DNA of 62,342 bases, the filler included, from Hausera hauseri (Eukaryota), in NCBI GenBank assembly GCA_046269625.1. It is 11 parts of 11 records of this genome, joined end to end, with 100 filler letters (N's around TTAATTAATTAA, not from the genome) between each part and the next. Parts side by side here need not be neighbours in the genome. Positions count along the whole stretch, not along the records: positions 43,326 to 48,227 come from JBJURY010397812.1; positions 48,328 to 58,043 come from JBJURY010303277.1; 9 more parts are not named here. The stretch is one strand, 5' to 3'. Of this stretch, positions 33,292 through 62,342 are shown one piece after another. Made by a program: the position numbers and the translations under genes. How positions within the stretch are numbered: the first letter of the stretch is position 1; each line of letters starts with the position of its first letter. Below the pieces are notes generated by a model. It was not told where the DNA came from, did not search any database, and saw only the letters and a list, made by a program, of their open reading frames with translations.

Positions 33292-33361
33292 AAATGTATA
33301 CCATAATTTCCGGACAACAAAAATCGCTAAAATGTATACCATATTTCCGGACGGAGGGAGT
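33292..33361. mobile_element. Tc1/mariner-type (Stowaway-like) MITE terminus
   Basis: GGACGGAGGGAGT terminal motif preceded by two AAATGTATACCAT..TTTCCGGAC sub-repeats; only one end is present. Confidence 0.55.
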
Positions 33362-33777
33362 GCACAATTATGATTAAATACGTTTAATCAACTTTTTCAT
33401 TACAATACAAAGCGAAGCAGAAAATACAAGTCCAATGAAAAAATTAATACGTTGCCGTTTTCGTTTCCACTCATCTTTGATACGTTTTACGAAGAGAAAT
33501 CGGACTATTAATTCAATTTACTATTGCCTGCTCATTATCCTCGTTTGTGTCAGCTCACATAGATGCTGAACGTCAAATACATGTGCAGTAATTATTTTAT
33601 GTCAATTTCTGAATTTCACTCTCAACGTACTCTTCCATGCAAGTTTTAATATGTAATATGGCTGATATGTTTATACCTACCTAAAAGAAATAAGTTATTG
33701 CATATCAATTTATTATGCAACTGTATTTAATATTTTTGATTTAAAGTTAACATTTACTTTAATTTGTTTAAATTTAG

Positions 33778-36700
33778 CAATGTTCACAATATCCCATGTA
33801 CTGCATCTCTCGTATACATGAAGTGGATCAGTCTCATCAAGAGATGGCGAAATACTACAAAATTGGCATGGACACGTACGTGTGTCCAACATGTGATGTT
33901 TCAACCCGCTATCCGTACCCCAATTTTTATGAGGTTCACAAGTATCATCTCGGGCCGTTTACTCGGTTTAATAAGATGATGGTTGTGCATTGCCCCACAT
34001 ACCCGAGATACTGTAGTAGTAGTAGAGTGCATGACGTTGATGGTTACCATAGTGTAATGGAGCAGTACTAGGCGCCACAGCGGTGCACGGTAAATAAGCA
34101 CAATTGTTTGTCCCCATTGGTATTCTATAGTAGATGAAATCAACTATGAACAATTTTATAGTCTACATAAATGCAATTTCAACCAGTTTAAGCGGTCGAA
34201 AAAACAACTAGTTATGGACTCAACCAGCAGCATCAGCAGCAGCAGCATCCCCTCAACAACCAGTAGGAAACGTCAGGCCGCAACAAGTCATGACGACTTA
34301 ATCAGAAACAGTATGAAGCAGCATCAGCAACAACAGGAGCAGCAAGAAGAACAACAACAAAAATAGAAGCGACGGGATGCCAATATTCCCAATATTACAA
34401 TTAAGTACTATCTGAACAGATCGTACATGGACATAAAAGCGAACATGTCGGCGGAAAAAACGAAAACAACGCAATTGAGACATTTTCCGCAAAATGTTCG
34501 CAACCGGTTGGAATCAGAAGTGGAGAAATTCCAATATCACCACCAACAATGGAAAGTGCAATATTATGCACTTGCAGAATTTGAAAACGTTGAAGGAGAC
34601 AGGAAACAATGGTACCTGTCACATCGAGCTGTACCATATGCCATGGATTTTATTGCCGACGTAGGCGAAAAAAAGTCGAGTGACATAGTATATTTGTCTG
34701 GACGATCATTCATATTGACATCTACAGCTCTGAAACAGTCTCTGGCGTTAGCGAATGTGAAAAATACTAACGATAAATACTGTTTTCTTTACAGTATCTC
34801 GGCGATATTGAATAGTGACGAAGTGGACAGACATAGCGCTTCTCGTCCAAAACAGTATCAGAAATATTTTTCCGAATTGGATTTCGATGAAAGCTGGATG
34901 CCGATGAAACTGCAAGTCATTCCGGCTTTTGAATGGCGTAATCAGACATTGGTAATCAACGAGTTCCGGTACAACACCATCGTAGAAATACCGCGGATGA
35001 AGAAATTTACAAAAATCCTCATGTGGACATAATCTGTCGTAGTCGGAACCCAAATGACTGCTCAGTAAATTTGTTGATACTGGAACAAAAAGAAAAGTAC
35101 CACTATGTTGCAGTAACAAATCTGGACAGACTGATAAACATTGAACATAACCGTTTCCTCCAAAAACGGATAGTGTAAATGGTGTCCTGTATGTCTTCAG
35201 GGATTCAGGTCGGAAACAACATTGGAGAAACATGTGACTCTGTAGACAAAATTCGTCAGGAATCATAATGTATATCATACCCGTCAAACAGGAACTCAAG
35301 TTCACTGATTGGTCAAAAACATACAGTCCGGCATATGTAATATATGCCGATATCGAAGCTATCTTACCACGGCACAACATATATGACCAAAAACATGTTT
35401 CAATCGCCGTTGGTATGTTAATTGTCCCAATAAAAGCTGCAGGTCAACTTCAATATTATATTTTCCACTGATGGAATTGTGTACGCGATTTTCTGCAGCA
35501 GTTGCAAACCATAGTGGAAACTGAAATCGCACCCTCATATAGTGGAAGTAGCAATAAATCCTTGATGTGGACAGATGAAGATGAACGCCACACGTTTGCA
35601 GTAACAAATGAATGTTACCTGTACCATAAAATATTACCCTTTGACGCACTGGAACGGCTCGTACCGGATCACGATAATTTTGCCGGTCTATATCTCGGAG
35701 CCGCATGTTATTCATGCAATTTGGCAAGGCGTGTGCGATTATTCCTACGGCAGGTGTTTGATAAATTTATGTGTTATGATCGTCACCATATTTTGAAATG
35801 GGCCATAAAGTGGGAACTATGCATAATTTCGACTACGATGGAGAAATACCTGTTACTGTATGCTCGTATAAACCGGTTCCAGGTACGCTTCCTTCACTCA
35901 TTGCAATTTCTCAATGAATCTCTGGCAAAGCTGGCAAATGCCTTGCCAGATGTGCTGATATCACTGACGCAGTTCTCTGCATATATTGCACGCAGCAAAG
36001 GCATATTTCCACATGACTTTGCAACATAATATGAGAGACTCCGGACATCAGAGGAATTATCGCCGCGATGGACAAGTATCACAGAAGATTAATATTGGAG
36101 AGCACAAGAACCTTAGACAGAACTGGGCTGTAGAAACATAATGCATTACATGTTCCAGTATCTTAAACTGGACGCGTACTTATTAGCCGATGTGTTCCAG
36201 GCGTTTTGAGCGAAAGCCTTGGCGGAAGATATGCTAGAGCCACTCAACTTTTATTCCATACCTGGAATGAGTTCGGCATCAGCTCTAATGTCACTGGATA
36301 GAGACATTGAGCTGCTGTAAGACCCGAAAATTTACCAGCTGTTTATGTTGTTATTCGCGGTGGCATGACATTTGTCAATAAGCATCAGGTAAGTGCTACC
36401 GATACCACATTGCTGCTGTATACTGATATCAATAACCTATACGACAGGACGCTTTCGCAACCCTTGCTGTACGGTTCATTCGAACGGGTTGTCGACAGAC
36501 AAGATCTGGACGACATAATTTTCAACCTACCACGAGAAGACACGGTAAGCTCAGTCGCATACCCGATTGAGATCTGTTTCATGGTGAGACGAGCTGCATG
36601 ACGTTTTCGACGATTTACCAGTCGCACCATTTAATCAATGTCCGCTAGGCTCAAAAGTGAAGAAACTGCTCATGACGCATGAACCGAAGCTGAATTACGT

Positions 36701-37419
36701 GGTTCATTGGCGTCTGCTACAGTTCTACATGCAGCTTGGTGTACGTGTCACACAACTGCATCGTGCAATCCGATTTGCCCAAGCTCCAATATTCAATGTG
36801 TACATAGATGGAAATTCGGAGAAACGAGGCGCAGCTTGTACAAAATTTAAAAAGGACTACAAGCTAAAAAACAATTCTCTCTACGGAAAAACGGCGGAGA
36901 ATCTGAAAAGCCACTCAATGTGCGCCTACGTAATATCAAAAAATGGCTGGTCACGTACACGAGTAAGGCACAGTTTTTGAAGTCAATGCAGATTGCCAAT
37001 GTATTGGTTGCGGTGCTGTTAAAAAGAGAAGAAGACGTTTTGGACCGGCCAAGTTACATCGGACAGGTGGTATTGGACTTGAGCAAGTTGCAGATATATG
37101 AGCTACAGTATCGCGATTTGGCACATTACCGGCAAATGTATGACAGCTGTGACATTAGTATAATTGCAGGTGCCACAGACAGTTTTTCCTGCGGCTGAAA
37201 AAAGACAATTGCGAACAGTTACAGCAGCAAATGCAGTTAAATAAATTACTGGACACGTCCAACTATCCACAGGATCATCTTTTGTACAGAAGGTCGATCA
37301 CTAACGAAATCGGCTGCTTCAAAGATAAAAGTGAAGGTCAGGTTCAGTATCGGGAATGGGTATTTCTACGGCCAAAATGCTATAGCCTTTTAATTGACGG
37401 TGGACCGAAAATCATTTAA
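33778..37419 (+). mobile_element. Polinton/Maverick-type pPolB, decayed; close relative of 15135-18770
   Basis: Colinear nucleotide similarity with contig 4; YADIE, DHDNFAGLYLGAAC, KGIFP, YLKLD, INNLY, KLKNNSLYGKT.EN, AGATDS, GCFKD, LRPKCY; truncated at the 3' end. Confidence 0.93.
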
Positions 37420-37535
37420 TTTATTTATATACATTTGTGTATTTAACATAATGTGACGAGAAAAAATATGAAAAACAAAATCAATAAAAATTATTAATCA
37501 TCATAAGCTAAAATCAAGAAACAAAGTAAGTCAAA

Positions 37536-37865
37536 TCAGCGTAAACTTTCCAAACTTCCATATTTTGGTGATTTAACGCCGTGCACATACTTGTACCCTT
37601 TCAACTTCAACGTTAGATGGCCTTTAGCTCCTTCTGGTGGCAAAACTGCTTTTGCTGCTGTTTCTCCGCCATGTGAACTGACAATTTTCGCCATAGTTCC
37701 TTTGAGAAAAATCGACGATGTATCTCGAATATCTTTAGTCAACACTAAATCATTGTCAACTTTTCTAATTGTGTCTTCTACTGTATCCAAATTATCATCG
37801 CTGATCTTTTTCACCAATAGACCATATTTCACCGGTTTGATTTTGACCGTTTGCGCCAATGGCAA
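37536..37865 (-). CDS. Small unknown ORF convergent on pPolB (5' part frameshifted)
   Basis: 109-aa open frame with protein-like composition; family not recognised. Confidence 0.35.
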   Translation of the reverse strand: MPLAQTVKIKPVKYGLLVKKISDDNLDTVEDTIRKVDNDLVLTKDIRDTSSIFLKGTMAKIVSSHGGETAAKAVLPPEGAKGHLTLKLKGYKYVHGVKSPKYGSLESLR

Positions 37866-38529
37866 TTGAATAGCGTCGCGCAGATAATGAAAGTTGTATC
37901 CATTATACTACCGGGAATTTCAGAGCAAATATTCGTGTACCTTGGCTTTTATGAGAAACTGTCACCTGCTGAATTGTTTTCTAAAGACATTGTTTAAATA
38001 AGACAAACGTGGACTGAAATCGTATCTCTATTTATATCAAATGTTTGTCTTCATTGTAAACAAGATATTTACTTTGTGAGTATTGTCTCATATTACAATG
38101 ATACAAATTACTTCCATGTTATTGAAGTCATTTGTAATAGATGTGTACAATTTCGATTATAGTCAAACATTATTCTTATAATCTATCCGTATTTATGGTT
38201 TTTGAATTATCCAACTGACTAATGCTGCTAAACATGACATGAACATTATTTANNNNNNNNNNNNNNNNNNNNNNNNNNNNNNNNNNNNNNNNNNNNTTAA
38301 TTAATTAANNNNNNNNNNNNNNNNNNNNNNNNNNNNNNNNNNNNNNNNNNNNTCACATAAACAAAAACGCTAAAGAAACAAAAACTGGAAAAGACTATAA
38401 TACAAGTATACAGAATTGCTAGAGTTACAGCTACACGTAAAATTTCTAAAAGTGTAGTCACATGGTGGAAAAAGTCCCCTCACAAGTGCGCTAACCCCTC
38501 CAGTGCGACCACGCCTTAAAGTCCATTAC

Positions 38530-41439
38530 ATTATTTGTCTGGAAAATCATATCTTCCAGCATCTGAAGCTTTACGAAATGCAAAGGCCGTTGTTAATGTT
38601 CAGAATGAGGGCAATTTGTGTTCTTATATTCAATTTTTGCAGTGTCAAAGTAGATGTAGAATTAGCAATTACATTCCTTTCTTAGCTGAGTTTAAATATT
38701 CCTAAGATGATATGCCTATGAAAATCTGTACCATAGGTAAATTTAGGAAACAAAATTCACAGCTGTCAATTAGTGTATTTCTGTTTCACGACGATGAGGA
38801 TGATGTTGACTTTGATGTGAATATAGTGAAAAATCCATTCCTTGATATTTTGTATCAAAGCAAAAATCCGACTGGTTCTGTAGTTAATTTGCTGATTTTT
38901 GAGAAATGATGATAAGTTCCGCTATGTTACCGTTCCCAATCTTAAGCGACGGTTAAATATGGACAGTAAGAAAATTCGTACTCAATGTAAACATTGGTGT
39001 GAAAAATGTCTATATGGCTTTAGGTACGATACGGCATACTTTAAGCATTTGCCAATGTGTATGTCTTCTTCCAAGTGCATGACATTGTACAAAATGCCAG
39101 AAAATAAGTTGTGTGAATTTAGGGACTGGGCAAAATCCATAAATCCGCATTTCGTTGTATATGCCAATTTTGAATCAGTTCTGTGTCCTGACGATAAAGT
39201 TAAACATTAATTTGCATGCTGGAGCCGGTCTCTTGTTAGTTTCATCAATAGGTATTGAATATAGGCAATTTGTGGGCGAAAATTTCATAGTTTATTTCTT
39301 GGCATATTTAGAAGAAATTGTTAAAACCGTAGTTTTCCCTTGGTATGAAAATGCGAAAAAAAACCATAATCCCGTTAAAATCTGCTGAATGGTATAGGTT
39401 TATAAATGCCACTGCTTGTTATCTCTGCCATGAAAACGGTTCTGACTTTGAAAACTGTTTTGTTTGTCACGCTACGGGTAAATTCTTAGGCCCTGCTTGT
39501 AACAAATGTAACTTGATCGTAAGATTAGGTATAATTTGCCCATAATTTTCCATAATTTGGACGGATATGTTCACCATCATATTTTAAAACACGCACTAAG
39601 TAAATTCGGTACTTTGAATTTGAGTGTCACCCCTCAAACTACTGAAAAATTCCTGACTATGCAGGCAAATATATTGTTTTCTTTTAAAAAGTCTGTTTCT
39701 ATTAAGTTTCTTGACTCGTTGCAGTTTGTACCGGCTTCACTTAAAACTTTAGCTTCTAACTTAGACAACTACCCATTTACTGAATCGGCTTTTCCATCTG
39801 ATATCATTACGGGAAAAGGGATTTTTCCATATATGGCAGCCAAATCATTAATGACTTGCAGTCGATTACTGAATTACCGCCAATATGGGATGGTGTTAGC
39901 GATAGTAAGTATGAGGAAGTACATCTTACCTGGTCGAAATATAGACCTAGCTATTTGTTAGATTACGTGTAAGTATAGATAAAACTCGATGTATACTTGT
40001 TAGGTGATGTTTTCAAGCGGTTTATAAAGGAATTTAAGTTGCAGAGTGATTTAGAGGCGGTTAACTTCGTTTAAATTCACGGTTTATCATGGGTGACACC
40101 AGTAAAATCAAGTCCTTTTAAGATTAAGCTGATTCAAGATCCCGAAATGTATAGTTTCTTTCAATCGGGAATTTGCGGTGACATGACTTTTGTAAATAAG
40201 CATAGAGTTACCACTGATGAACGCACCAGTCTCTTGTATATGGATGTAAATAATTTGTACCTTTGCCCTTTGCGGATTTAGTATGGATTTATGATGAGGA
40301 GAAATTAGACAGTTTGATTGAACAATTACCCTTCATTGACACTGTTAGGGAAAAACGAGGTTTAAGCATCCCATCGGACAAGCATGATAAATTAGACCAA
40401 CTACCTTTAGCTCCTATCAACAAATGTTCTCCTGGTTCCAAAGTAAAGAAATTGTGGCTGACACGTGAGCGTAAGTCCAACTATGTTATTCACTATAGGC
40501 TCTTACAGTTGTACATCAAGTTAGGCGTTGTAGTTGACAAAGTACATCGGGCTGTTGAGTTTGACCAGGGTTATGTCTTTAAGGATTACATCGATTTAAA
40601 TACTGCTAAGAAGGCTGCAGCGAATAATCCTTTTGAGAAGGACGTCTTACGCTGAAGAATAATAGCTTATATGGAAAACAGTTGAAAATCTGCAGCAAAG
40701 ATCAAACATAAGACCATGTAATAATGCTAAGAAGCTTATTACTTATGCTAGCAAAGCACAGTATAAAGAAAGTATTATTATAGCCCATGATCTCGTTGCC
40801 GTTCTTCTAGATAAAAACGTGGTTACATTAGATAGACCCTTATACATAGGACAGGCTGTTCTGGATCTTTCAAAGTTGAGAATATATAAGCTGATTTATA
40901 TAGAGTTAGAGTCTTACAGGGAACAGTTCAATTGTGAGCTAAATATTATTGCTGGTAACACAGACCGTTTCTTCCTCGTATGCCGTGGCGTTGATATAAT
41001 TGAACATAGCTCTTGACAGAAATGATAGCCAATGAGCAGTTGGACACTTCTAACTATGATAGCAGCGACATGCTTTATTCTACACTTATCTTATTGTACA
41101 TTTATCTTACTTTCATCTACACAGGATGAAGGTAAGGCTTGCGTTGAATATCAAGAGGCAATTTTCTTGACACCAAAATGTTATGCACTGAAAACTCAAA
41201 GCAGACCTGTCCTCAAATGCAAAGTAAAGAACCTCAAACAAACAGACTTACAGTTCACCAACTATCAACAGGCTTATGAAAATGGGTGTGGGACAACAGT
41301 TGACCAGGAGCGTATCGGGACAAAAAGTCACCAGTTAATGACGATCAGCACAAAAAAGAAGGCAATAGATCCGTTCGATGACAAAAGATACGGTATAACC
41401 AAAAACAAAAGTGTCGCATTTGGACATTATTGTATTTAG
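38530..41439 (+). mobile_element. Polinton/Maverick-type pPolB, decayed
   Basis: CEKCLYGF, YANFES, CHATGKFLGPACNKCNL, FHNLDGY, FLDSLQF, KGIFPY, DVNNLY, KNNSLYGK, LDLSK, AGNTD, PKCY, DDKR. Confidence 0.93.
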
Positions 41440-43499
41440 TTTGTATATTTCATGCCAATAAATATTTTTATCCTTCTATTTTTTCTTTCATCCTATTCAG
41501 TTTATAAATTTCACTTATAATACATTAACATTTATCACTAAGTAAAAACATTTATTAACGTACAAATCTTGATAAAAATATTACAAGCGATCCCACAAGG
41601 ATACTACACACAAGTAAAACGTTTCTCTGTCTTCATTTAAATTCTTCATTAACATTTGTTACACATATTGTTCGAATTACAAGTTCTACATAGTCTTCCT
41701 TTGATAAAAAACTTTGATTCTGTATTCCGTTTAGGAATTGAATACAATCTAATTTCACATTCCATATTTCTTCTGTCAGTCGCTTAATTTCACCTTCTAA
41801 ATCTAATTTGCAATGATACATATGGAATTAATTTAGGTGAGCAGAATTATAAAAAATTACCATTCGCTTAAATGATTATTCTAATTGGCTTTCCTTCCAT
41901 TTGACACAGTAATATTCATATAAACTTTGTAAAATTAAAACAAAATATACCGAAATTTAAACAAAAAAATTTTGGTACGAAATTCAAATTTTTAATTCCG
42001 CCTACAATCCATGCAGTGCACGTGCTTGTGTGTATCACTTTCATAACTGTGAGCCTCCTATCTCCACCATATTAATCGTGCCTGTGTGTATCACATTTTC
42101 TACCCCGTGATTCATCCGCGAACCACATCAATAGTATAAAAAGGCCGGTTCTGGATCACCCCCCGTGCAGCCAATACGAAGCGTGCTTGATGCGCACACA
42201 GGTACTGGGTTTATCAATTTGGCGACGGAGATTTCAAAAATCACACCGCCAAAGGCGCACGGTGCACCCCGAAAGCAGGCGAAGTGCACGAGAAAATGCG
42301 GATGTTAGAAGGAAGTGGTATACGGTCATGTGTGGCGCATAGAAATGATGGGCAAGTGATGGCGCATCGAATGAGGAAGGAACGAAGGCGATCAGATGAA
42401 ACACAGAAGCACGGGGTGATGGAAAAAAAGTGATCCAGAACGGGCCTATGCTTCATGAGAAACTGGGAAGCGTTATCGACCAACGGTTGATGGTCCATAA
42501 CCGTAGGCCTGTGAATAGGCGAACGGCACCGGAAAGAAAGGTACACGATGCACCGATGACGAAACAGACATCCATGTGTGTGTACTGATGATGGAATCCA
42601 GTATCGTGTAGTACAGGAAACGGAAGCCCATGACTAGCGCTATTTGATAATGGTGTTCGAATGGAAAGAACCCATTCCCGAACCGAAGTGCGATGAGAAA
42701 CGTCGAAAATCGGCAAAGGTATCCTTTTGAAACGGGAAAATATTTCATCGAAGTTCAACATAACCGGATTCAATCGATCGGTCGTTGGTTACTGATTATG
42801 GATATGTGTGTCGGAAAGTTTTTAAGCGCGTCCATCAACGTATAGCAAAGGAGAACGAATTTTCTATGTACATGTGAACTTTGAACACATGAACTTTTAT
42901 ACGGTTTTAGGTAAATACCTTCGAAAAATATTGATTTTTTACTTAGGTTTTATGGATGACTTTGTTCTATGTTACATAAAATTTGTTTCATATATTAAGA
43001 AAGTCATTGGATTTTTAATAACCATCATACATACACAAACATAAAATGTATATAAGGCATAAAAAAGTAAATTTAAGCAATATGATATCAATAATAAATT
43101 ATAGGGGTTATATACGTGGAACAGTCGCACATTTACAATTCAATAAATGGAAACCGCAATAATATGTACTGCAATTAGACAAATATAGTTTGGTTATTTT
43201 CGAAAATGGTAAATGTAGAGTAATGNNNNNNNNNNNNNNNNNNNNNNNNNNNNNNNNNNNNNNNNNNNNTTAATTAATTAANNNNNNNNNNNNNNNNNNN
43301 NNNNNNNNNNNNNNNNNNNNNNNNNTATGTGCAAAATCGATCTATCGATTACCGCCCCCCCGGGAGCTGGGCCAGAACAGCCATTTTTACACTACTGGTC
43401 GTTGTCCTGCTGACGCTATATCATCTGCCTCTCCTAACTTTTCTTGCACAGACTTTTTTCCTTGACAAAACTAATTCGAGTCGCACCTAGCTACAATTC

Positions 43500-47985: not shown

Positions 47986-48449
47986 GGGCGCGGGCGCGAA
48001 TCGTGTTCTCATATCAAAAGAGGCAGCAGATTACGAGGATTTTTGACCTTTCAAGGTCGGTGTTCAAGGAGAAAATCATTTGCTCAAAATTGATCAGTAA
48101 TTTAGTGGTTAGATGTCTTGCACTTCGTTCCAAATAAAAATTTGCATCATTTTACACTTCTACAGTGTTCTCTTCCAGCAGACAAAAGCATATAGACAAA
48201 AATTTCGTCTCAAGTCAAAATTTACGTNNNNNNNNNNNNNNNNNNNNNNNNNNNNNNNNNNNNNNNNNNNNTTAATTAATTAANNNNNNNNNNNNNNNNN
48301 NNNNNNNNNNNNNNNNNNNNNNNNNNNGAAAAAATCCTTAATCTGAATACAATTAAATTATTTTAATATTTTTATTATTTTAATTTACATATTAATTTTT
48401 TTTTGAAAAATTTTATTTACGCATAGCTAAGACAGATTTACCCCACTAT

Positions 48450-51400
48450 TTAATCCAATCGCCTTTTACGCTCGAGGATATGGGATTGCACGTAAGGCAG
48501 ATCCTGACAAAATCCTCGCGAACGAGTAAAAGGGCGATTACGAGTATCTAAATCATCGACCACAACAACGTCCCCACTAACATTTAAATTATGAGAGTGT
48601 ATATCGGAACTTGTCCCGGAGTGTACAGGAGTGTTTACGACACTTGTGTCAATGATATCGTCCCCATGCTCGTCGACAAAGCCTTCGAAGTCCAAGGCTC
48701 GATCTGCAAACCCTTCAAAATCACGGTTTGGGTCCTCGAAACCTTCGAAGTCTTGACTTAAATCTGAGAAACCACCAAAATCTTCCCATTGTAAAGACGA
48801 AATATCCGACTCTAAATCATCGGAAAGAGAAACCCAGTCAACCAATTCCGAGAAACTTACTTTCTTTGGACCTCCAGGTGACTCTGGAGACCTCTTCCCG
48901 GAGGGAAAAATCGGCGGAAACGCGATGTCATATCTCCGCAGGAAGGAAGAAAGATCAGGTGATCCTGTTGGAGTCAACGGAATTGTTTCGCTTTGACTGG
49001 AACCGCTGAAAAGCGTAAACGTCTTCTGAGGACTGGTAAGATCTGCAATAACCGTTGTTAACTGGCTAATAGTGCGCAAAATACTCTGCACTTTTGCTAG
49101 GGACGTACGTGTCTCTTCATCCATTACAAAACCTTCGAAATCATCATCATCCTCTGACTCCAAAGATGGACCGACGTCACGACGAATATACTCGCGTTGA
49201 CCATCGATGAGAGGATCCGATGTAGTGGAACTGGTTATCACCGGTACTTCTTGCATAGCCTTGGCACTGAACTCTTCATGCTCCTGCAAGTACATTGGAG
49301 GAATCTGCCAACGCTTGACCTGGCTATGATGAACCCGGTAAACGCGACTTTCCTGAAGAGATTGAACTTCGTAGGTGACCTTATTTGCGTTTGCCCTGAT
49401 GATCTTCAAAGGGCCCAAATACCTTGGTAACAATTTATTTGTAACCAGGTCACCAGGAAATGGTCGCTTCATGCCCACTAGATCACCGACTTTAAAAGTG
49501 GTAAACAAAGGATGACCAGGCTTCCAGTAAGATTCAACGTTCTGCACTGGAAGGCCAAAAGACGATTTGTGGGCCTTTTCCATAATGCTTTCGCACGGCG
49601 TCAACAACGTCTGGGCATGCTGAGTATGGTTGTATGTAACCAGTATATGGGGTAATTTAGTATCCCAGTTAGAACTGGTTGCTAGCGATACTCGCAAATA
49701 CTGAAGAAGCGTTCGATTTACACGCTCGACTACCCCATTGGATGAAGGTTTATATGGTGTTGTAACTACATGTTTTATGTTATACCTATCTAATAAGTTT
49801 TGGAATTCATTTCCAATAAATTCTTTCCCATTATCAGTTAATAACCTCTCGGGCAGTTTTGGCAATAAAGGCAAAACATAACGTTGCAATGCCAGCGCTA
49901 CCGTAGAGGATTGCTTATTACGCAATGGGATGGCAGATACCCATTTAGAGTAATGGTCCACCATAACTAATAAATACTTATTCCCTAAACTTGATACCGG
50001 CAATTGCATTAAATCAACTGCGGTAAGCTCAAAAGGCCTATAGGTAACAATCTTGAACATCGGAGGGACAGCCAACATATTCGATAATTTGGAAGACTGG
50101 CACACATGACAAGTAGTTGGCACGTCATGACAAATCTTATATAAAGACGGATGCCAGATTTGCTTCTCCAATAACGCGGTTAACTTGTTCCTCCCTAGGT
50201 GAGCATATTCCAAATGGCTTTTTACCACTACATCTACGGCAAGTGAAAAAGGTACTACAGCGGGATGATTACCCTTAGAAGTTTTTCTACGTAAAATATT
50301 TACACAAAAATTGTAGTCCTTTTTGAACCTTAAGAAGGACTTCATCTCCCCTGATAAACGTCCTTCAATGCGCCTGGGGTTTTTAATAAATTTCACGAGG
50401 TTCCGGACGGTCCGATCCGCGAACTGAGCTTGCCGAATAGTGTCATCCGACAGCATGGAATCCTCGAACAGGATTTCCTCATCCGCTGACTCGTCCAGTC
50501 GGATGCACATTAACTGGATATTATTCGATACCGATACCAATACTTGTGATTCCGATTCCGATCTCGTTAATTCCGAGTTAGATTCTCGTACCACCGAAAC
50601 CGATACCTCCCCACCAGACCCGAACTCGGTTTGACCGCTAAGGTTAGGCTTATTACCTGTTGATTCTTCTTTTAACTCAAACGACTCATCAAGGAGATTA
50701 AAAGAAACAAAATTTCCCTCAATCTCCCCATGATGTCGTGTGTCTTGTAGTATACAAGGTTCGGAGTCTGGTGAAGTACCCAGTAATAAATTGTAATGAA
50801 CACCCCCCAAACACAATAATCTACACAATTTTTCGCCTGTGATTGGGCCGAATCTCAATGGTTCACCACTGCCGTAGTATACCCAAATCCTAGAATTATA
50901 TAAATTCGCGAACGCTTCGATGGCTTCGGTGATGGGTAATTGGCCTCCTTGCTTCATTAGCTTGAGCAATTTGGTCACCCCCACGTGATTTCGTCCGCTC
51001 AATAAGCCATACTTTTGCTTATGATCCAGAAGCTCTTGGATAGCTTCCTCCCGCAACTGGAAATGCTTGTCCATCGCCCCAAATTGCCAAAGCGCTAAGC
51101 ACATAAACAGAGAATCACCTCCTCCGGGAACTTTATGTTCAAAACATCCCGGAGGTAACTCGACCTCGGGAGGCGACGTGGAAATCTCTTGTGCTGGCGT
51201 CACTGGGGACCTAGACAAGGCATCCGCGACTACGTTTTGTCGGCCCGGAATATACCGAAGTTCATAATCGATATCGTTGATTTCTTCCAACGTCCGGGCG
51301 ACACGCTGATTTACGAGAGACATACTGTTTAAATAGATCAAGGGTTTATGGTCAGTATGAATAATGACCTTAATACCATACAAAAATGGCTTAAGGGACT

Positions 51401-53648
51401 TAACCGCCCATCGAATAGCCGCGACTTCCTTTTCGGTTGTACTATATTTTACCTCGGCTTTCGAAAAGGTTGTGGAGATATACGCGATCGGCTTGAGCTC
51501 CCCTTGTTGCTCCTGAGCAAGGCAGGCTCCCGCTCCTACGTTGGAGGCATCGACAAACAACATGAGCGGTGGCGCATCAGGCTGACGATTGGGATAAACC
51601 AACAAGGTGGGATTGGTTAACTCCTTTTTCAGCTGGTCGAACGCATTCTGACATTCTAACGTCCAGCTTAAAGTCCGCTTCCCCAAAATCTCAAACAACG
51701 GCTTCGCTATCTCTGAACAACGCGGAATATGCCGACGATAAAAATTAACCATGCCAAGGAATTGGCGTACTTTCCGTATCGTAGTTGGAACGGGAAAGTC
51801 TTTAATTCCTTGTAGGCTTTTCTGTAACGGGATCATTCCGCTTTCCGAAACAATATGGCCCAGGTATTGTACCTCTTTCCTGAGCAAAAACGTTTTACTG
51901 GGCTTTATCTTAAACCCAGTATTGGAGAATGCTTCTAGCACCTTTTCTAAAATAATTAAATGCTCCTCAAACGTTTTGCTGACTATTAAGACGTCGTCCA
52001 GGTACACCATGGCTTCCGTCCACGGAATATGAGATAGAGCGTACCTCATGCCCCGTTGGAAAGTAGCGGGTCCATTTTTAACCCCAAAAGGCATCCTAAG
52101 AAATTCCCAATGGGACAGGGGAGTAGTGAAGGCGGTTAGCTCAATGCTATCCTCCTCCATCTCTACTTGATAGTACCCCTTGACCAAGTCAAGGGTAGAA
52201 AAGTACTTCACCCCCTGTAAACTAAACAGCATGTCTATCAAGTTGGGAATAGGGAAACTATCTCCCTTCGTGATCTTGTTGAGTTCCCTGTAGTCAATAC
52301 AAAGTCTCATCGATCCATCCTTTTTCTTGATAGGCACTACAGGAGCGGAATATGGAGATTTGCTCAGTCTATTGATCCCTTCGGATTCCAACTTTTTGCA
52401 GCTATCTTCGACCTCGCGCAAAATCGGGCCTTGTAATCGGCGGACGGGCAACTGCACGGGAGTGTCATCGATAATTTCAATTCGGTGCTTTATGACCGAC
52501 GTGCATCCAACATCCCCATCGTGCAGGCTTAGAGCATCCGGATATTTTAACAACAGAGTCAGAAGCTGATCCCGCTGATCCTCGGTTATATCCGAATCCT
52601 CAATTCTGAAGTCAGAATTCAATTTGTCCACCGACCAAACGACTCCTTGTTCGGCATTGTGAGTTTCTGGCAACTCTACGACGTTTGCCTGAACCGATTC
52701 CGATTCCGTGAATTCAATAACTCCGACTCTTTGACCCTTTTTGCATTTTAAATACCCTGGACCTTCATTGTAAGCCAGGATATAAGCCCGATCTTCTCGG
52801 AGCTGCAAAATTGCGCATGGCGAAACGAATTTACACTGTGCATCACATGAGAATATTGAAATCTTATCCCTATCTAAAAATTGGTTAGGTATAACTATTT
52901 CTACTAATTTACCCATATAAGGACCCAAGGAAAAAGATTCGGCTAAAAAGCAACTAATACTTTCTTTTTCCTCCAGTCGTGTATCAAACGCGACTGGTTG
53001 TACGAGATTGCCTGTACGAAGGACTAATTCTCGCTCCCGCAAGTCAGGTAACAAATGTTCTGACTGCAAGATGTCAAATCCTAAGATAATATCATGATGA
53101 GTAAGCTCATCCGGTATTATCACAAAAGTGTGAGCTTCCAGAATATAAGACGCTGAAAAACCCAACTGTAAATCCACGGCCCCTATAATAGGATATCTTA
53201 CTCTCCCTATGCCGCTAATACTGCGATATATCGTAGTCCTAAGAGGAAATAATCCAGTTTCCAACTGATCATAACAACGACGAGTGATCAGGCTCACAGT
53301 GGCTCCTGTGTCGACGAAGGCAACAAACGAAACGTTTGGTTGGTCAGGCACACGCACCTTAACCAACAAGGCGTCCGACGACAATGCTGTCAACCCAAAC
53401 TCAATGCTGGGCTGCCCATCTAAATTGTCGACTTCACCTGCTTCTTCATTGTCGACGGGAATATCAGACGGGTGATCCGCTGACTTGCCTTCTAAGAAGT
53501 CTAAATCGGCCGCTGTTAAAATAGGATCGATTCCTAATAGATCCTGGATAATAGGTATCCGTTCCTCCGATGAGGGCGATGTCAAGACATCATTGACCTC
53601 ATCCTGCTCTGTGTCGAGGACTTCTGACACAGGCGGACTCAGTTTCCC
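48450..53648 (-). CDS. pol: Pol polyprotein: protease, RT, RNase H, OTU-like domain, integrase, acidic tail (expressed by -1 frameshift)
   Basis: FVDTGA, CIDYR.LN, MPFGVKNGPATFQ, YLDD, VDAS, TDHKPL, ADALSR, H..HLG..CHVC, VDL, TDNGKEF, NG.VERVN; the ORF track frame is open from 53771. Confidence 0.96.
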   Translation of the reverse strand, partial: GKLSPPVSEVLDTEQDEVNDVLTSPSSEERIPIIQDLLGIDPILTAADLDFLEGKSADHPSDIPVDNEEAGEVDNLDGQPSIEFGLTALSSDALLVKVRVPDQPNVSFVAFVDTGATVSLITRRCYDQLETGLFPLRTTIYRSISGIGRVRYPIIGAVDLQLGFSASYILEAHTFVIIPDELTHHDIILGFDILQSEHLLPDLRERELVLRTGNLVQPVAFDTRLEEKESISCFLAESFSLGPYMGKLVEIVIPNQFLDRDKISIFSCDAQCKFVSPCAILQLREDRAYILAYNEGPGYLKCKKGQRVGVIEFTESESVQANVVELPETHNAEQGVVWSVDKLNSDFRIEDSDITEDQRDQLLTLLLKYPDALSLHDGDVGCTSVIKHRIEIIDDTPVQLPVRRLQGPILREVEDSCKKLESEGINRLSKSPYSAPVVPIKKKDGSMRLCIDYRELNKITKGDSFPIPNLIDMLFSLQGVKYFSTLDLVKGYYQVEMEEDSIELTAFTTPLSHWEFLRMPFGVKNGPATFQRGMRYALSHIPWTEAMVYLDDVLIVSKTFEEHLIILEKVLEAFSNTGFKIKPSKTFLLRKEVQYLGHIVSESGMIPLQKSLQGIKDFPVPTTIRKVRQFLGMVNFYRRHIPRCSEIAKPLFEILGKRTLSWTLECQNAFDQLKKELTNPTLLVYPNRQPDAPPLMLFVDASNVGAGACLAQEQQGELKPIAYISTTFSKAEVKYSTTEKEVAAIRWAVKSLKPFLYGIKVIIHTDHKPLIYLNSMSLVNQRVARTLEEINDIDYELRYIPGRQNVVADALSRSPVTPAQEISTSPPEVELPPGCFEHKVPGGGDSLFMCLALWQFGAMDKHFQLREEAIQELLDHKQKYGLLSGRNHVGVTKLLKLMKQGGQLPITEAIEAFANLYNSRIWVYYGSGEPLRFGPITGEKLCRLLCLGGVHYNLLLGTSPDSEPCILQDTRHHGEIEGNFVSFNLLDESFELKEESTGNKPNLSGQTEFGSGGEVSVSVVRESNSELTRSESESQVLVSVSNNIQLMCIRLDESADEEILFEDSMLSDDTIRQAQFADRTVRNLVKFIKNPRRIEGRLSGEMKSFLRFKKDYNFCVNILRRKTSKGNHPAVVPFSLAVDVVVKSHLEYAHLGRNKLTALLEKQIWHPSLYKICHDVPTTCHVCQSSKLSNMLAVPPMFKIVTYRPFELTAVDLMQLPVSSLGNKYLLVMVDHYSKWVSAIPLRNKQSSTVALALQRYVLPLLPKLPERLLTDNGKEFIGNEFQNLLDRYNIKHVVTTPYKPSSNGVVERVNRTLLQYLRVSLATSSNWDTKLPHILVTYNHTQHAQTLLTPCESIMEKAHKSSFGLPVQNVESYWKPGHPLFTTFKVGDLVGMKRPFPGDLVTNKLLPRYLGPLKIIRANANKVTYEVQSLQESRVYRVHHSQVKRWQIPPMYLQEHEEFSAKAMQEVPVITSSTTSDPLIDGQREYIRRDVGPSLESEDDDDFEGFVMDEETRTSLAKVQSILRTISQLTTVIADLTSPQKTFTLFSGSSQSETIPLTPTGSPDLSSFLRRYDIAFPPIFPSGKRSPESPGGPKKVSFSELVDWVSLSDDLESDISSLQWEDFGGFSDLSQDFEGFEDPNRDFEGFADRALDFEGFVDEHGDDIIDTSVVNTPVHSGTSSDIHSHNLNVSGDVVVVDDLDTRNRPFTRSRGFCQDLPYVQSHILERKRRLD
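53609..53648 (-). promoter_or_regulatory. Programmed -1 ribosomal frameshift signal
   Basis: G GGA AAC slippery heptamer (53648-53642) immediately before the gag stop, in the correct phase to enter pol; followed by a CTGTGTC/GACACAG stem (53632-53609). Confidence 0.85.
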
Positions 53649-55366
53649 TGCCGATTTGTGCAATTTATGCCCAAGTGAGGCCCTTGACAGAAGGGGCATT
53701 TGGGCTCGTCGGGGCGGTCTCTCGACGGACAGTCGGGAGCCAAATGTCCCCGCTCTTTGCAAATCGCACACTTATGAAGGGCAATGTAGCACTCTTCATA
53801 AGTGTGCCCACGCTTACCACAATAGTGGCACAAGGGTCGCTTGTGGCACTGTCCCATTTGGTGGCCCTTCTTCTTACAGAAGGAACACTTCTGGGGCGAA
53901 CCCTGCGGCTGGCTCCTTGGTGGGTCTCGCGGAGGCGAGTTCGTCGGCGTATAAACACGACGAGGAGACTGCCGCTGAGACTTCGGGCTCGGCGGAGTCC
54001 CATTCTTCCTCTTGGGCGGACTAGGCGGCGGGCTCGGCTTCTTCCTCTGCCCCGTCCTATTTGGCGACTTAGGAGGCGAAGCTGGGGCATCCGACCTCCT
54101 ATACGCAGAATTATAATAATAATTATTTCCACTGTTTGTCTTCGGCCTCGCACCTTGAGCAGCTTTGGCATAAGAACGGGGAGGAGTCGGGTACAAGGGA
54201 GCAGGCAATGGGGCTGATGGCCCAGGCAACACTTGATATGCCTCCGGTTGTTGAGCAACCCGAGGTTGGTGCTGCCCATAACCACAAGAACCACACTGGT
54301 TGCACCAGCCCCCTGCTGGCGTCACCGCGGCCAGATCTATGACCTCGGGCGCATGATTCATCCCTGTTGGAGGGTGTGTCAATGACGGCATATTCGAGTC
54401 CACCAAGGACACGAATCTCTCCCAAGACATCTTCCTTCCCATGGTCCTTTCATAATCCCTGCGAGCGTTTTCCACATGAAAACGGATTGCAGGGGGGACA
54501 CTCGCCAAAAACCGTTGACGGACCAACGGTAAGTTCTCAACGTCGCACTTGGGAAGCGCTCGTTGGGCTAATCCCAACAAGCGAATGGCGAACACCGACA
54601 TGGGTTCGTCATCATGTCGAGCTGCTTCCAAGAAACGTGTGGAGTGCATTTCCTCCTCACGGTCCAACTCGTCCTGAGACCACTGAAGAAGAATTTCCTT
54701 CATCTCTTCATAAGATGCAACGGATCTCAGGGCCACGAGATAAACTTGGAGGACAGGACCATCTAAATGCTGTCGCAAGAGATGCAGGTAACCGGTGGTA
54801 TCGTCACCAGAATACATCTCCTGACAATGTGCTTCGAATCGCCGGAGGAACGCAAAGACAGGTTCTCCACTCTCCGGCGAATAAACTCCCAAAGGTTTGG
54901 GTCGGCGTCTAGGATTTATCATCGATGCCTGGAGTAACTCGGACATACGCTGGACAAGAATCTGGTTTTGTCTAACCAGATCGTTGACCAGAGCTGCCCA
55001 ATCTCCAGGTGAAGACGCTTGAGGTGTGCTTACAGGTGGCAAACCCGAAACTTGAGGCATTTGTTGCGGCGTTGACGTCGCAGTCGTCAACGGCGGCAAA
55101 TTACAAGACGCTGTTGTGGTCATAGTCATTTGATTGTTCAAATATACTTTATTATTATTGTCACTTGGATTTGGCCAGTTTATATTAGACATGAGCATTG
55201 ATGCTTGCAAATTATCAGGATTAGTAGTTATCAACCGCTGTGTATAGGGGTTAGTAAGTTGGGGAGGCTTAGCCTCCACTTGTGATGATTCGGCGGAACG
55301 CATAGGCAAATTGAGCTCATCCACACTATCATTTAGCAAATTCGTTGCTCCTTGTACACCGTCCAT
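53639..55366 (-). CDS. gag: Gag, 575 aa, four CCHC zinc knuckles
   Basis: Capsid-like region (FLRRFE, RHDDEPMSVFAIRL), P/S/R-rich linker, then CSFCKKKGHQMGQC, CHYCGKRGHTYEEC, CAICKERGHLAPDC, CPFCQGPHLGINC. Confidence 0.95.
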   Translation of the reverse strand: MDGVQGATNLLNDSVDELNLPMRSAESSQVEAKPPQLTNPYTQRLITTNPDNLQASMLMSNINWPNPSDNNNKVYLNNQMTMTTTASCNLPPLTTATSTPQQMPQVSGLPPVSTPQASSPGDWAALVNDLVRQNQILVQRMSELLQASMINPRRRPKPLGVYSPESGEPVFAFLRRFEAHCQEMYSGDDTTGYLHLLRQHLDGPVLQVYLVALRSVASYEEMKEILLQWSQDELDREEEMHSTRFLEAARHDDEPMSVFAIRLLGLAQRALPKCDVENLPLVRQRFLASVPPAIRFHVENARRDYERTMGRKMSWERFVSLVDSNMPSLTHPPTGMNHAPEVIDLAAVTPAGGWCNQCGSCGYGQHQPRVAQQPEAYQVLPGPSAPLPAPLYPTPPRSYAKAAQGARPKTNSGNNYYYNSAYRRSDAPASPPKSPNRTGQRKKPSPPPSPPKRKNGTPPSPKSQRQSPRRVYTPTNSPPRDPPRSQPQGSPQKCSFCKKKGHQMGQCHKRPLCHYCGKRGHTYEECYIALHKCAICKERGHLAPDCPSRDRPDEPKCPFCQGPHLGINCTNRQGN

Positions 55367-55479
55367 TCCACTTGTATTCTACAAAAAAGGGACGACAGTA
55401 AAAGGAAAAATGAAAAATGAGGATGGGTGCTTCAAGCACAATTAAAGAATGTGCAAAGTGCACGGCAGCGAAGAGCGGG

Positions 55480-55497
55480 AACTACGCTCTGCTACCA
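55480..55497 (-). promoter_or_regulatory. Primer-binding site, initiator Met tRNA
   Basis: TGGTAGCAGAGCGTAGTT, 4 nt after the LTR end, is complementary to the ..CTCTGCTACCA 3' end of animal tRNA-iMet. Confidence 0.88.
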
Positions 55498-55501
55498 AAT
55501 A

Positions 55502-55780
55502 TGTAAAAGGAGGGTGTCGTGTCGTTGGTGTTGGTCGTGTCGTGTGGGTGTTATGTCACCACGTTAGTAGGGAGGATTGTGTTCCTATCCTTACTAAGCA
55601 CACGCTCTGGTTAGCTCGGGTAAAACCCTACCAAGGTTAAGCAGGTATTCCTGACAACGCACGCAAGTTCTCCCTGTTAATCCTATCGTTCCCACTCTCG
55701 CATGCAGCTCTAATAGCACTTTTACTCTCTCTCAACTCCCCACTATTGCGCTCAATTTTCCCCTTTACTATTCACTTACA
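55502..55780 (-). repeat. LTR (collapsed single copy, 279 bp)
   Basis: TGTAA...TTACA termini on the minus strand, preceded by purine tract GGGGAATAAAAAG (55794-55782) and followed by the PBS. Confidence 0.78.
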
Positions 55781-56481
55781 ACTTTTTATTCCCCAAACGT
55801 ATAATTACTAATTTATTATTAAAGAGATTATATAATGGAAACCGAATTATTTACCTGCATTATAATATTAACGAAAACAAACTTCGGATCAAATGTCTTC
55901 GTGATCTTGAAGCCGTATGGGGCCCCTTGACTTCACAATATGATCCAAGATATTTCTTGTGTTTTCCATCATTAATACCATGCCGAACATGAAAATATAA
56001 AACAAATCAATACATGTTTCGGCTAGGGGTTACAACTAATTAATTAATATAAATAATAAAAACATATATCAAATATATATATCAATTAGATATCATGACT
56101 TATATGAAATAAATTCATACCGGGTGTTTTACCCGTTGACTGAATAGTCGATTTAATTAGTTTCCCGTATGGAATTTTTATTTACTTTGAAATGCCTGTT
56201 TGTATTTTATTTATAATTTTATTATTAAAAAGAAAAAAAAAACAATTAAAAAAAATTCATCTCACCATTATATAAAGAAATATAAAAATAAACAAAATTA
56301 GTTTGTTTCCGAGATTTCCCAGAGAAGGGAATAAAATCAGCAACTCCCCTGGGCGGACCGGACTGGAACCTCACCAATGGCCGTCCCCCTGCACTCCTCC
56401 CCACCCGCCGAGTAACGGCGGACCAAGTCGCAGTGCCGCAGGGGACTCCAGTGAGTGTCCGCTCCAGGTGCTGGATAGCTA

Positions 56482-57957
56482 TTACTCCCAGGCATCCCAG
56501 AGAAACTGACGCGCTTCTCCGGGAGCTGGGTAGTAATCAAAGGCGGCCCAGTAGCCCTCTAAACGTGAGACCGCCGAATTGATTTCTTCACGTAGCTCTC
56601 CCCAAAGACGTGGAGGAATGAAACCTGGGGGCGCCATACCTCGGGTAGATGAATGAGGCCTACGGTGTGGTAGTCGGGGAGCCCCCGAAAATCTGGGGAA
56701 TCTCCCGGGTCCGACTCGACGGAAACCCCTGCGCCCCCGACCACGGAAACCTGGCTGAGCACCGGGATAGGCTGCAGCCGCGGGAACTGGAGGGCGAAAA
56801 CCCCTTCCCAGCCCCTGAAGTTCCGGCAATGTCATTGGGCCAGGCTGACCCAAAATAACATCTCCAGATGTTCCTCTTTGAGGAGAAACTATCGGCTCTG
56901 TTGTCTCAGGGGCCGAGCGTTCGGTACCCCTGGCAGATGGAACTCGCCTTCGTTGCCGACCCTTCCCCTTGTTAGTCAGTCCCCTCCCCCTTGTGGTGTT
57001 AGTGCCACGTGGCGGATTCGCCACCCCGGATGGACCAGGTAAAGAATCAGAGAGATTTGGAGGGAGACCTCCCAACTCCTGGGAATCAACGGGCTCATCA
57101 GGGAAATGTAGGCGGGATTTAAGAGAGGCCCTCGACGAAGCGGCTCTATCCGAAGAGGATGAACTCTGGCGTGACGCCTGGGTTTTAATACCCAATCGGC
57201 GACTCACTCCAAGCTGTGAAAACAGCTGATTGAAAATGAGCCGGCAAGCCAATTTCGTAGGGTGGACCCCATCCCGTAAATAGCCTTTTCCTCGAAGGGT
57301 ATGACTGTGCCCGGAGAGAAAATCATCCAGAGCACGGTGATAAGGAGCGTGTCTACCAAGGATGGAAGACCCACTAAGACGCTCCCCTTCGGTGATACAT
57401 CCCCCGATCAGCTGTGAGGTAGGATCTATTATATCCAAATACCTCTTAACGGTGGATGTATAAAGTTTTAGTTCATCTAAATCAGGCATCTCTTTGTATT
57501 TTTGTTTAATCGCCGACGGCGCTCGACGAAGATCTCGCTGGTTCTTAAAGTTCAAGTCAAGAGGTGGTGGTATAAAAATATACACCTTAGCGTTGGGAGC
57601 TATTACTTTGACTCTTGACTTGAACGTAAAGTAATCCAGGACGAATGTGTCTAAATTAAAGTCCGGGTTAGGCCGTATGGCAAAATAGTTTCTTTTGCTA
57701 TCAGGGCCGCTTAAACTGTGCCTTTGAAATGCCTCCGTTATCAGGGAGAACAACACGACATGCGTGATGTCATCCTTGAGAACTTGGGGTAAAGAAATTA
57801 CCAGTTGTTTCAAGGAAGCCCCGGGATAAGGAGCAAAGGTCACTTGCGACTCTGATATTCCATGGTCTTTGCTGGAGAAGGAATCTCGCAAACAGCTAAC
57901 CCAAGAATGACCGATGATTAAGATCTGAAAAGACAACATAAAATCTGGTAAGAACAC
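56482..57957 (-). CDS. ORF3: SGNH/GDSL hydrolase domain plus R/G/P-rich disordered tail
   Basis: Block I ILIIGHS, block II YPGA, block V DGVHP; block III Asn absent. The first ATG is at 57939. It lies ~130 nt after the pol stop once the contig is circularised. Confidence 0.85.
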   Translation of the reverse strand: MFLPDFMLSFQILIIGHSWVSCLRDSFSSKDHGISESQVTFAPYPGASLKQLVISLPQVLKDDITHVVLFSLITEAFQRHSLSGPDSKRNYFAIRPNPDFNLDTFVLDYFTFKSRVKVIAPNAKVYIFIPPPLDLNFKNQRDLRRAPSAIKQKYKEMPDLDELKLYTSTVKRYLDIIDPTSQLIGGCITEGERLSGSSILGRHAPYHRALDDFLSGHSHTLRGKGYLRDGVHPTKLACRLIFNQLFSQLGVSRRLGIKTQASRQSSSSSDRAASSRASLKSRLHFPDEPVDSQELGGLPPNLSDSLPGPSGVANPPRGTNTTRGRGLTNKGKGRQRRRVPSARGTERSAPETTEPIVSPQRGTSGDVILGQPGPMTLPELQGLGRGFRPPVPAAAAYPGAQPGFRGRGRRGFRRVGPGRFPRFSGAPRLPHRRPHSSTRGMAPPGFIPPRLWGELREEINSAVSRLEGYWAAFDYYPAPGEARQFLWDAWE

Positions 57958-58143
57958 TAAGATCCCGAAAAAATCCTTAATCTGAATACAATTAAATTAT
58001 TTTAATATTTTTATTATTTTAATTTACATATTAATTTTTTTTTNNNNNNNNNNNNNNNNNNNNNNNNNNNNNNNNNNNNNNNNNNNNTTAATTAATTAAN
58101 NNNNNNNNNNNNNNNNNNNNNNNNNNNNNNNNNNNNNNNNNNN

Positions 58144-61494: not shown

Positions 61495-62342
61495 ATGCAA
61501 GATGATGAAGAGGTGGAATTAAGTCAAAAAATTCTACATCTTTGTGCAAACCTGCATGATCAAGATCCAGGAATTTTGCAAGTCAAAATCATCAAATTTA
61601 TCATAGTATCAGAATGGAATGTGCATTTATTCTTACTCTGTCCCACAGAAATATGGAAGTTGTCTGCAAGGCACTGGACGATAAGGTATTTGACCGTGAG
61701 AAGCGATTTACCGTGAAATCGTCGGTATTTGAACGAGTAATTCATGATAATACCTGTCTACAGATACAAGACCTCCCCATAGAAAGAATATCACAAATGG
61801 AACAACTGACCATTTTGAAATGGCGATCATTTCTCTGTGTACCCATTGTTAATCAAGCCGACTGTACAGTTAGCGCCTTGGTTTGCCTTATAAATAAAAT
61901 GGGATCTGATAGATTTTCCGAAAAAGACATTTTCATAACCAAATTAGTGTTTCGGTATACTGCAGCCGTGTTAACAAGCAGCGTTTCATTTCAAAACAAA
62001 AGAAAACTCAAAGTTCAGATTGAGACTATGATTCAAGTGGCAATGAATATTTTCCGTAAGCTGGAAGATTTGACAGTACTGATGAAGGAAATCATAACGG
62101 AAGCAAAAAAGCTTACGGATGCAGAATAATGCTCTGTATTTCTCGTCGACAATGACTCGAAGGAGTTAGTTGCAAAGGTTTTTGATGGATTGACTACAGT
62201 TTCCGATACTTGTCAACATCCAAAGGAGATATAATCCCAACTAACCAATGTGTGGCAGGCCATGTTGCATGTACTAAAGAGATGCTAAATATATCAGATG
62301 CCTACAGTTACCCCTTGTTTTATCGGAAAGTTGATGATGAAA
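61495..62342 (+). pseudogene. PDE2A: cGMP-stimulated phosphodiesterase 2 GAF-A/GAF-B region, intronless and disrupted
   Basis: KIL.LC..L.D.D...LQ.K, LCVP+V, YT..VLTS...FQ...[44 protein letters not shown]; frameshift at ~61610, stop at 62127, frameshift at ~62230. Confidence 0.88.

Follow-up and report, generated by a model that had tools for sequence, protein, structure and literature searches.

A 62,342-nucleotide stretch of Hausera hauseri DNA (GCA_046269625.1; here called the window), made of 11 unrelated contigs with N-linkers between them, contains an intact Ty3/Gypsy long terminal repeat (LTR) retrotransposon on the contig at positions 48328-58043. Its Pol polyprotein carries an OTU-fold domain that lacks the catalytic cysteine and likely binds ubiquitin, and its integrase ends in an acidic tail of FxGF motifs that likely binds a chromatin reader of the LEDGF/JASPer type; we hold this sequence-based reading of the element as a whole with moderate confidence. 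By sequence comparison, a lineage of hundreds of protein clusters shares the OTU domain and the FxGF motifs as ancestral traits, and the interest of the element is the lineage that it reveals, more than the three-part combination in this copy. An earlier note on the window had proposed the combination of OTU-like domain, FxGF repeats and third open reading frame (ORF3) as an undescribed three-module system: all three modules do reside in one intact element, but the first two are lineage-wide and ORF3 is optional.

OTU-fold domain and FxGF tail in a Gypsy polyprotein

Three stop-free frames occupy the minus strand of the contig, gag (55378-53639), pol (53771-48450) and ORF3 (57996-56482), and Pfam recovers a protease, reverse transcriptase (RT), RNase H, HHCC finger and integrase in Gypsy order. 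The features of gag and pol are as follows.

53639..55366, minus strand: gag, 575 amino acids (aa) from the first ATG, with four CCHC-type knuckles
53606..53648, minus strand: predicted signal for a -1 frameshift, with G GGA AAC ahead of the gag stop and a hairpin after it
48450..53771, minus strand: pol frame, 1773 codons, stop-free
53052..53360, minus strand: aspartic protease (DTG), from Pfam
52677..53009, minus strand: possible degenerate dUTPase-like stretch between protease and RT, weak
51207..52331, minus strand: RT (YLDD) and RNase H, from Pfam; best solved relative, Ty3 RT
50772..51170, minus strand: OTU-fold domain, Ser in place of the catalytic Cys, with His and Asn retained
49272..50252, minus strand: integrase, with HHCC finger, DDE core and GPY/F-type region
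49128..49139, minus strand: FxGF motif 1, preceded by an acidic run
48678..48779, minus strand: four tandem DFxGF motifs at 10-residue spacing
48453..48527, minus strand: TRSxG...LPxVQ..LE motif, the conserved C-terminal end

The element belongs to Ty3/Gypsy (Metaviridae) by its protease-RT-RNase H-integrase order, by an RT that matches Ty3, its best hit among solved structures, better than retroviral or caulimoviral RTs (E 3.8e-78; 266 bits versus 163 for the next), and by a primer-binding site (PBS) and polypurine tract (PPT) beside the LTR. Its stop-free frames, PBS and PPT bear out the earlier description of an intact Gypsy element with all three ORFs. The nearest relative, L001, is 82% identical in RT-RNase H and reads GPY in the GPY/F-type region of integrase, where the element reads GPL. 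The -1 frameshift is supported because L001 keeps the slippery site, stop and hairpin (G GAA AAC, the stop, and a hairpin of different sequence with z -5.8; z -2.7 for the hairpin of the element). The dUTPase-like stretch is weak, with E 0.73 (3 of 3 matches being dUTPases) and Herpes_ORF11 at E 0.004 in 1 of 5.

Pfam has no match for the OTU region, and for that reason annotation has not flagged it. A three-sequence profile matches human OTUD3 (E 7.6e-6) and OTUD5, and a model built from 55 sequences (pLDDT 94.9) superimposes on OTUD3 with Z 18.5, a root mean square deviation of 2.2 over 131 residues, and TM 0.80-0.82. Foldseek returned 57 matches to this model at E ≤ 0.001, and all 37 listed are OTU domains. 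As modeled, the fold is that of an OTU domain, so the earlier label of OTU-like holds for the fold, with Ser replacing the absent catalytic Cys.

This replacement extends through the relatives. Among the best 150, the catalytic Cys site holds Ser in 128, Ala in 8, Thr in 3, Cys in 3, Tyr in 2 and a gap in 6; the triad partners are His in 140 and Asn in 136 (plus Asp in 5), and Gly replaces the Asp of the D-G-x-C loop of OTU domains in 140. Because the Cys is Ser in the element and in these 128 relatives, the domain is classed as OTU-fold and not as a deubiquitinase. Ala and Thr occur at the site in long Pol frames, so the nucleophile seems dispensable and the pocket kept. The tolerance of Ala in these sequences points to binding rather than serine catalysis, and the modeled domain is likely a ubiquitin-binding pseudoenzyme. 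A second Cys lies in a CLGGxH hairpin (~50820), five residues before the His, in 133 of the 150 relatives; host OTUs have Tyr there. Viral contigs gave no match to the OTU region, a search of metagenome contigs gave 1 locus from 88 candidates, and no OTU domain is present in the window's four remaining Gypsy fragments.

The OTU profile matches 409 clusters at E ≤ 0.001, and 222 at 1e-10, among 1.84 billion representatives. Other Pol domains are present in 129 of the best 150 relatives, with RNase H upstream in 113 (median distance, 17 residues), integrase downstream in 82, both in 72, and any other order in 0; the remaining 21 are mostly short fragments, with one host-type OTU. For the 30 clusters whose hosts were looked up, the named hosts are Armadillidium vulgare (fragments in the P0001 and P0007 clusters) and the bdelloids Rotaria socialis and R. 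magnacalcarata (two OTU-bearing relatives). L001 (positions 378-6757), whose cluster includes Armadillidium vulgare fragments, is a sister without ORF3 that has the same PBS, an OTU domain, two FxGF motifs and an LTR of ~1.4 kb.

A second aspartic-protease motif, D[ST]G, lies between OTU and integrase in 64 of the 84 proteins having both domains. All 11 proteins with a short OTU-integrase spacer, including the element, are without it, and the six short-spacer members in the tree are separated by a branch of support 100. The tree was made by a quick method and is unrooted, with no named clades; its 65 rows each have at least 370 aligned RT-RNase H residues, with P0168, from the same cluster, standing in for P0007, and L001 for P0001.

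The FxGF repeats of the earlier note were confirmed, with five motifs in the element, of which the tandem ones read DFEGF-ED, -AD and -VDE. Across 64 integrase tails (element and L001 included), 70 FxGF motifs occur in 43 proteins, as opposed to 0.8 expected (maximum, 5) from 1000 shuffles. Permuted controls in these tails are at chance (FxAF, 0; GxFF, 1; FGxF, 3), and the bodies of the same proteins contain only 8 FxGF in 86,679 residues. These permuted motifs ruled out that the main signal is a motif order of the FG-nucleoporin or adaptor type. In the stretches upstream of 60 first-of-run motifs, CK2-type sites are present in 30 versus 15.3 expected, acids are enriched (22 versus 13.0 expected), K/R are depleted (18 versus 30.2 expected), and a hydrophobic-aromatic pair lies 5 to 18 residues upstream in 12 versus 4.3 expected.

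Known partner motifs have a similar make-up. In the available portions of the sources cited here, FxGF is needed by all known partners of the LEDGF/HRP2 TND, with an upstream helix that is called obligate and an 8- to 16-residue spacing (PMC9987994); an acidic, CK2-rich make-up is described for these motifs (PMC9987994; bioRxiv 10.1101/2023.01.30.526367); and the LEDGF domain of Drosophila JASPer is bound by a JIL-1 region containing DFxGFDE (PMC6877644). The FxGF motifs of the element, like TND-interacting motifs, lie within disordered acidic sequence. Because the make-up of the tail matches the motifs of LEDGF/HRP2/JASPer partners, the tail is probably, by analogy, a tether to H3K36-methylated chromatin through a host LEDGF/JASPer-type reader. 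PogZ, a domesticated pogo transposase, binds LEDGF via a motif of this kind and may be a precedent among transposons.

Beyond the repeats, [TL]R[SA]xG...LPxVQ..LE is found at the C terminus of 45 of the 64 tails (37 with the full motif), with 0.5 expected. We take this motif to resemble the arginine anchors by which proteins attach to the acidic patch of the nucleosome; a literature search on that likeness found nothing.

ORF3, LTR and closure of the contig

The remaining features of the contig are as follows.

56482..57939, minus strand: ORF3, 485 aa, SGNH-like domain followed by a Gly/Pro/Arg-rich tail
55502..56393, minus strand: single collapsed LTR, 3' end at 55502 (TTACA), 5' end most likely at 56393, 892 bp
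55780, minus strand: alternative LTR 5' end, 279 bp, at the second PPT candidate
56394..56406, minus strand: PPT, with 12 nt in common with the PPT of L001
55782-55794, minus strand: second PPT candidate, which would give a 279-bp LTR
55480..55497, minus strand: PBS, 18 nt, complementary to a tRNA 3' end
48328-48404 = 57967-58043, no strand: exact 77-nt terminal overlap, joining the pol side to the ORF3 side

ORF3 has no transmembrane stretch, and its motifs GHSW, PGA and DGVHP correspond to the block I Ser, block II Gly and block V DxxH of SGNH proteins, the blocks being assigned from the general consensus of the family. One homologue, P0003, is 25% identical over the N-terminal domain and keeps GHSW, PGA and YLRDG[VI]HP. 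The Asn of the block III GxND is absent from both proteins, with Thr at the likely position, and ORF3 is for this reason termed SGNH-like only. ORF3 has no match in Pfam, PHROGs, NCBIfam or PDB profiles, a search with the two-sequence alignment found 0 among 3634 candidates (lengths 130-433), and the single-sequence model (pLDDT 37) and its fold search were uninformative. Its language-model neighbours in the Atlas include, at 0.91 and 0.87, clusters in which Lipase_GDSL proteins make up 30% and 22% of the members. The SGNH assignment in the earlier note thus keeps the motifs, the homologue and these neighbours in its favor, but not a library match or the block III Asn. P0003 is on a contig of 10,028 nt, as are two proteins from the Pol cluster of P0007; all three probably share a single contig and would then belong to a second element of the same build. 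Since L001 is without ORF3 despite its close RT-RNase H, ORF3 appears to be optional. Pyrimidine-rich AG sites resembling splice acceptors lie just 5' of the starts of ORF3 (~57946) and gag (~55379) on the minus strand.

The 3' end of the LTR at 55502 is fixed by the PBS, whose tRNA we presume is probably initiator Met and which is letter-for-letter identical to that of L001 over 19 nt. In L001, an inverted repeat (9/10) made by the LTR ends comes immediately after GGGTGGGGAGG, and the PPT of L001 recurs at 56406-56394, then TG, within an otherwise nonaligning region. Because the L001 inverted repeat adjoins the same PPT, which is followed by TG here, the 892-bp LTR is preferred; on this sequence comparison it is fairly probable that the LTR is 892 bp and the whole element ~10.5 kb rather than 279 bp and 9.9 kb. 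The LTR does adjoin both PPT and PBS, as first described, with a 5' end that is ambiguous, and the original length estimate of ~9.9 kb agrees with the alternative PPT but not with the conserved one. There is no Rfam match over the LTR region, no tRNA gene in the whole window, and no match to the PBS in viral contigs.

The contig is 9,716 nt long and, as the earlier note reported, is closed by its exact terminal overlap, giving a 9,639-nt cycle; among the 11 contigs of the window it alone has such an overlap. An assembler with k = 77 leaves a 77-nt overlap on a cycle, and cycle closure by the assembler's k-mers is the most likely origin of the overlap. Its position between pol and ORF3 ruled it out as an LTR or target-site duplication. 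The minus-strand order along the contig is ORF3, single LTR, PBS, gag and pol, so that ORF3 falls between pol and the LTR once the overlap is closed. In a public run, X1, one contig unbroken over 56316-58043 ties ORF3 to the PPT side, but none of the 8 X1 pieces listed bridges the pol-ORF3 join.

L001 also self-closes, via ~125 near-identical bases, and most relatives looked up are carried on element-sized contigs, indicating that closure is ordinary for these elements. The terminal overlap does not, as had been suggested, signal recent activity, and the contig most likely represents several genomic copies collapsed into one cycle. X1 consists of filtered contigs only, with holes in cover over the LTR; it contains a near-identical form in 84 contigs at a depth of ~15 to 30 over the genes, whose main form has 14 listed differences from the contig at full depth, and LTR depth is not doubled, although contig depth is not copy number. 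Because LTR depth is undoubled and cover is holed, integrated copies, a tandem array and a 1-LTR circle are all possible. The intact frames and the 14 full-depth differences leave the proposed youth of the element plausible, but LTR-LTR identity is not measurable in a collapsed cycle. Some of the main-form differences are nonsynonymous. X1 also has low-depth diverged variants, one with 9 of 9 listed RNase H changes synonymous, and a variant in which 115 nt at 55862-55978 are replaced or skipped.

Other contigs of the window (25213-33159, 14566-25112, 33260-43225 and 61560-62129) contain a broken BEL/Pao-like element, Polinton-like DNA polymerase fragments, four degenerate Gypsy pieces and host-like exons (GAF domain); names other than GAF were assigned by eye.

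Alternative readings

Several observations weigh against the reading of Pol as an OTU-fold ubiquitin binder with a reader-binding tail, and against the accompanying views of ORF3 and the contig. The strong conservation of Ser, His, Asn and the extra Cys could mean catalysis, and the OTU may, though we consider it unlikely, be catalytically active and employ Ser-His-Asn or the hairpin Cys to cut ubiquitin, a ubiquitin-like modifier or its own polyprotein. This conservation holds at 24 to 49% identity among the 150 relatives, Cys occupies the site in two Pol members, and OTU proteases are carried by Ginger1 and Helitron transposons (PMC2836005, in the part available). Several of the Ala, Thr and Tyr replacements are, however, in long intact frames, the loop Asp has become Gly in most relatives, and the one tree entry with Cys, P0013, is surrounded by Ser members. 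For the tail, 21 of the 64 have no FxGF, the obligate helix is only partly visible (the 12 of 60 pairs above), the tandem motifs of the element have 6-residue spacers, below the 8 to 16 described, and the motif was counted in OTU-bearing tails only and may reach beyond the lineage. A wide range of domains recognizes short motifs with aromatic residues, and TNDs form a family (PMC9987994, in part). With the upstream helix missing in many tails, the motifs could bind IWS1, TFIIS, ELOA, MED26, an FG-type nuclear transport receptor or a trafficking adaptor, and could serve nuclear entry or transcription instead of site choice; we regard both the other partner and the other function as rather improbable, given the specificity of the F-x-G-F order and an acidic, CK2-rich context like that of LEDGF partners.

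That the SGNH domain of ORF3 has no profile or structure match also counts against an esterase. ORF3 might instead be a degenerate SGNH-like or an unrelated accessory protein acting via its basic RG-rich tail, a doubtful alternative that gains from the lack of library matches and of the block III Asn in both known copies, and loses from the retention of GHSW and YLRDG[VI]HP at 25% identity and from the Lipase_GDSL-containing neighbours. Similarly, collapsed copies with two LTRs each are a poor fit to the undoubled LTR depth in X1. If the contig were a real extrachromosomal circle with 1 LTR, or an LTR-sharing tandem array, it would be a product of current activity. Either form would account for the single LTR, for closure at an AT-rich spot outside the LTR, for the undoubled depth, and for the fact that none of the X1 pieces listed has a loose, flank-like end at a candidate LTR terminus; a circularly permuted bdelloid scaffold is a precedent (PMC5408684, in part). 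We nevertheless think a circle or array improbable: L001 closes likewise, most relatives looked up are on element-sized contigs, such contigs are expected when the low-coverage flanks of a multicopy element are clipped, and the X1 evidence comes from filtered contigs with LTR holes. A cycle collapsed from several genomic copies is retained.

Proposed mechanism and comparison with known systems

In the scheme that we propose, reverse transcription would be primed by tRNA-iMet and Gag-Pol would be made by -1 frameshifting. The FxGF tail would, rather probably and by analogy, mimic host TND-interacting motifs, with CK2 sites tuning affinity, and reader binding would steer insertion into transcribed, H3K36-methylated chromatin. 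Tentatively, the TRSxG end, from its resemblance to arginine anchors, may form a second, nucleosome-facing anchor. Whether the Ser-OTU binds and caps ubiquitin uncut, on Pol products or on chromatin, is in our judgment evenly balanced. ORF3 would be an optional, probably spliced SGNH-type esterase. We consider this fold reasonably probable, and less so the role suggested for the ORF3s of bdelloids, which is to act on acyl marks or at membranes.

For the site choice of animal Gypsy elements, a LEDGF/JASPer-directed motif would be a second independent tether of the lentiviral type. A lineage-wide Cys-to-Ser OTU is a candidate natural ubiquitin trap that links LTR retrotransposition to ubiquitin, and two proteases in one Pol, as in 64 of 84 relatives, depart from the textbook polyprotein. 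We give an even chance to the view that a large undescribed animal Gypsy lineage, with woodlice and bdelloids among its hosts, independently invented the tether of HIV through a copy of the FxGF motif found in LEDGF/JASPer partners, and combines it within Pol with a serine-OTU ubiquitin trap and, mostly, a second aspartic protease.

No OTU- or FxGF-bearing Gypsy element was found in the searchable literature (Repbase Reports, subscription journals and supplements lie outside it); the parts available of papers combining FxGF and retrotransposons held nothing on an element's own motif, and the term "OTU" is absent from PMC6338049, PMC8556966 and PMC5718144. Within that literature, the earlier suggestion of a new architecture stands for the OTU/FxGF part but not for ORF3, as bdelloid Vesta Gypsy elements have a GDSL/SGNH ORF3 downstream of pol (PMC5408684). 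As far as the available text of that paper extends, the element resembles Vesta and Juno in its gag, frameshifted pol and SGNH-type ORF3 without a transmembrane domain before the 3' LTR, in the patchy occurrence of ORF3 across families, and in the circularly permuted scaffold. Vesta and Juno have a dUTPase between protease and RT, of which the element may have a weak remnant; their esterases keep S, G, N and H, whereas ORF3 is without the block III Asn; they have one or two knuckles as opposed to four; and the text available mentions no OTU, FxGF tail or second protease (PMC5408684).

Ginger1 and Helitrons, like the element, have an OTU fold fused to a Gypsy-type integrase or other transposon protein, but these are DNA transposons and not LTR retrotransposons (PMC2836005, PMC6431247, in the parts available). 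As described there, the OTU of Ginger1 is C-terminal to the integrase; in the element it is placed between RNase H and integrase, with Ser instead of Cys. The TND partners JIL-1, MLL1, JPO2/CDCA7L and IWS1 share with the element an FxGF after an acidic, Ser-rich disordered linker (PMC9987994, PMC6877644, bioRxiv 10.1101/2023.01.30.526367, each in part), and the DFxGF repeats match the DFxGFDE of JIL-1 (PMC6877644). Unlike in these host proteins, the motif of the element is in a retrotransposon integrase, in up to five copies, with a partly evident helix and candidate binding only.

Yeast Ty3 is the closest solved RT and has the same domain order, but it is without the OTU, ORF3 and FxGF tail. 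Ty3 uses iMet priming and targets Pol III genes. Lentiviral integrase binds LEDGF through folded domains, whereas the element has a short linear candidate mimic in a disordered tail. By analogy with HIV-1 integrase and LEDGF, the element would use the same reader pocket to reach active genes (PMC9987994, in the part available).

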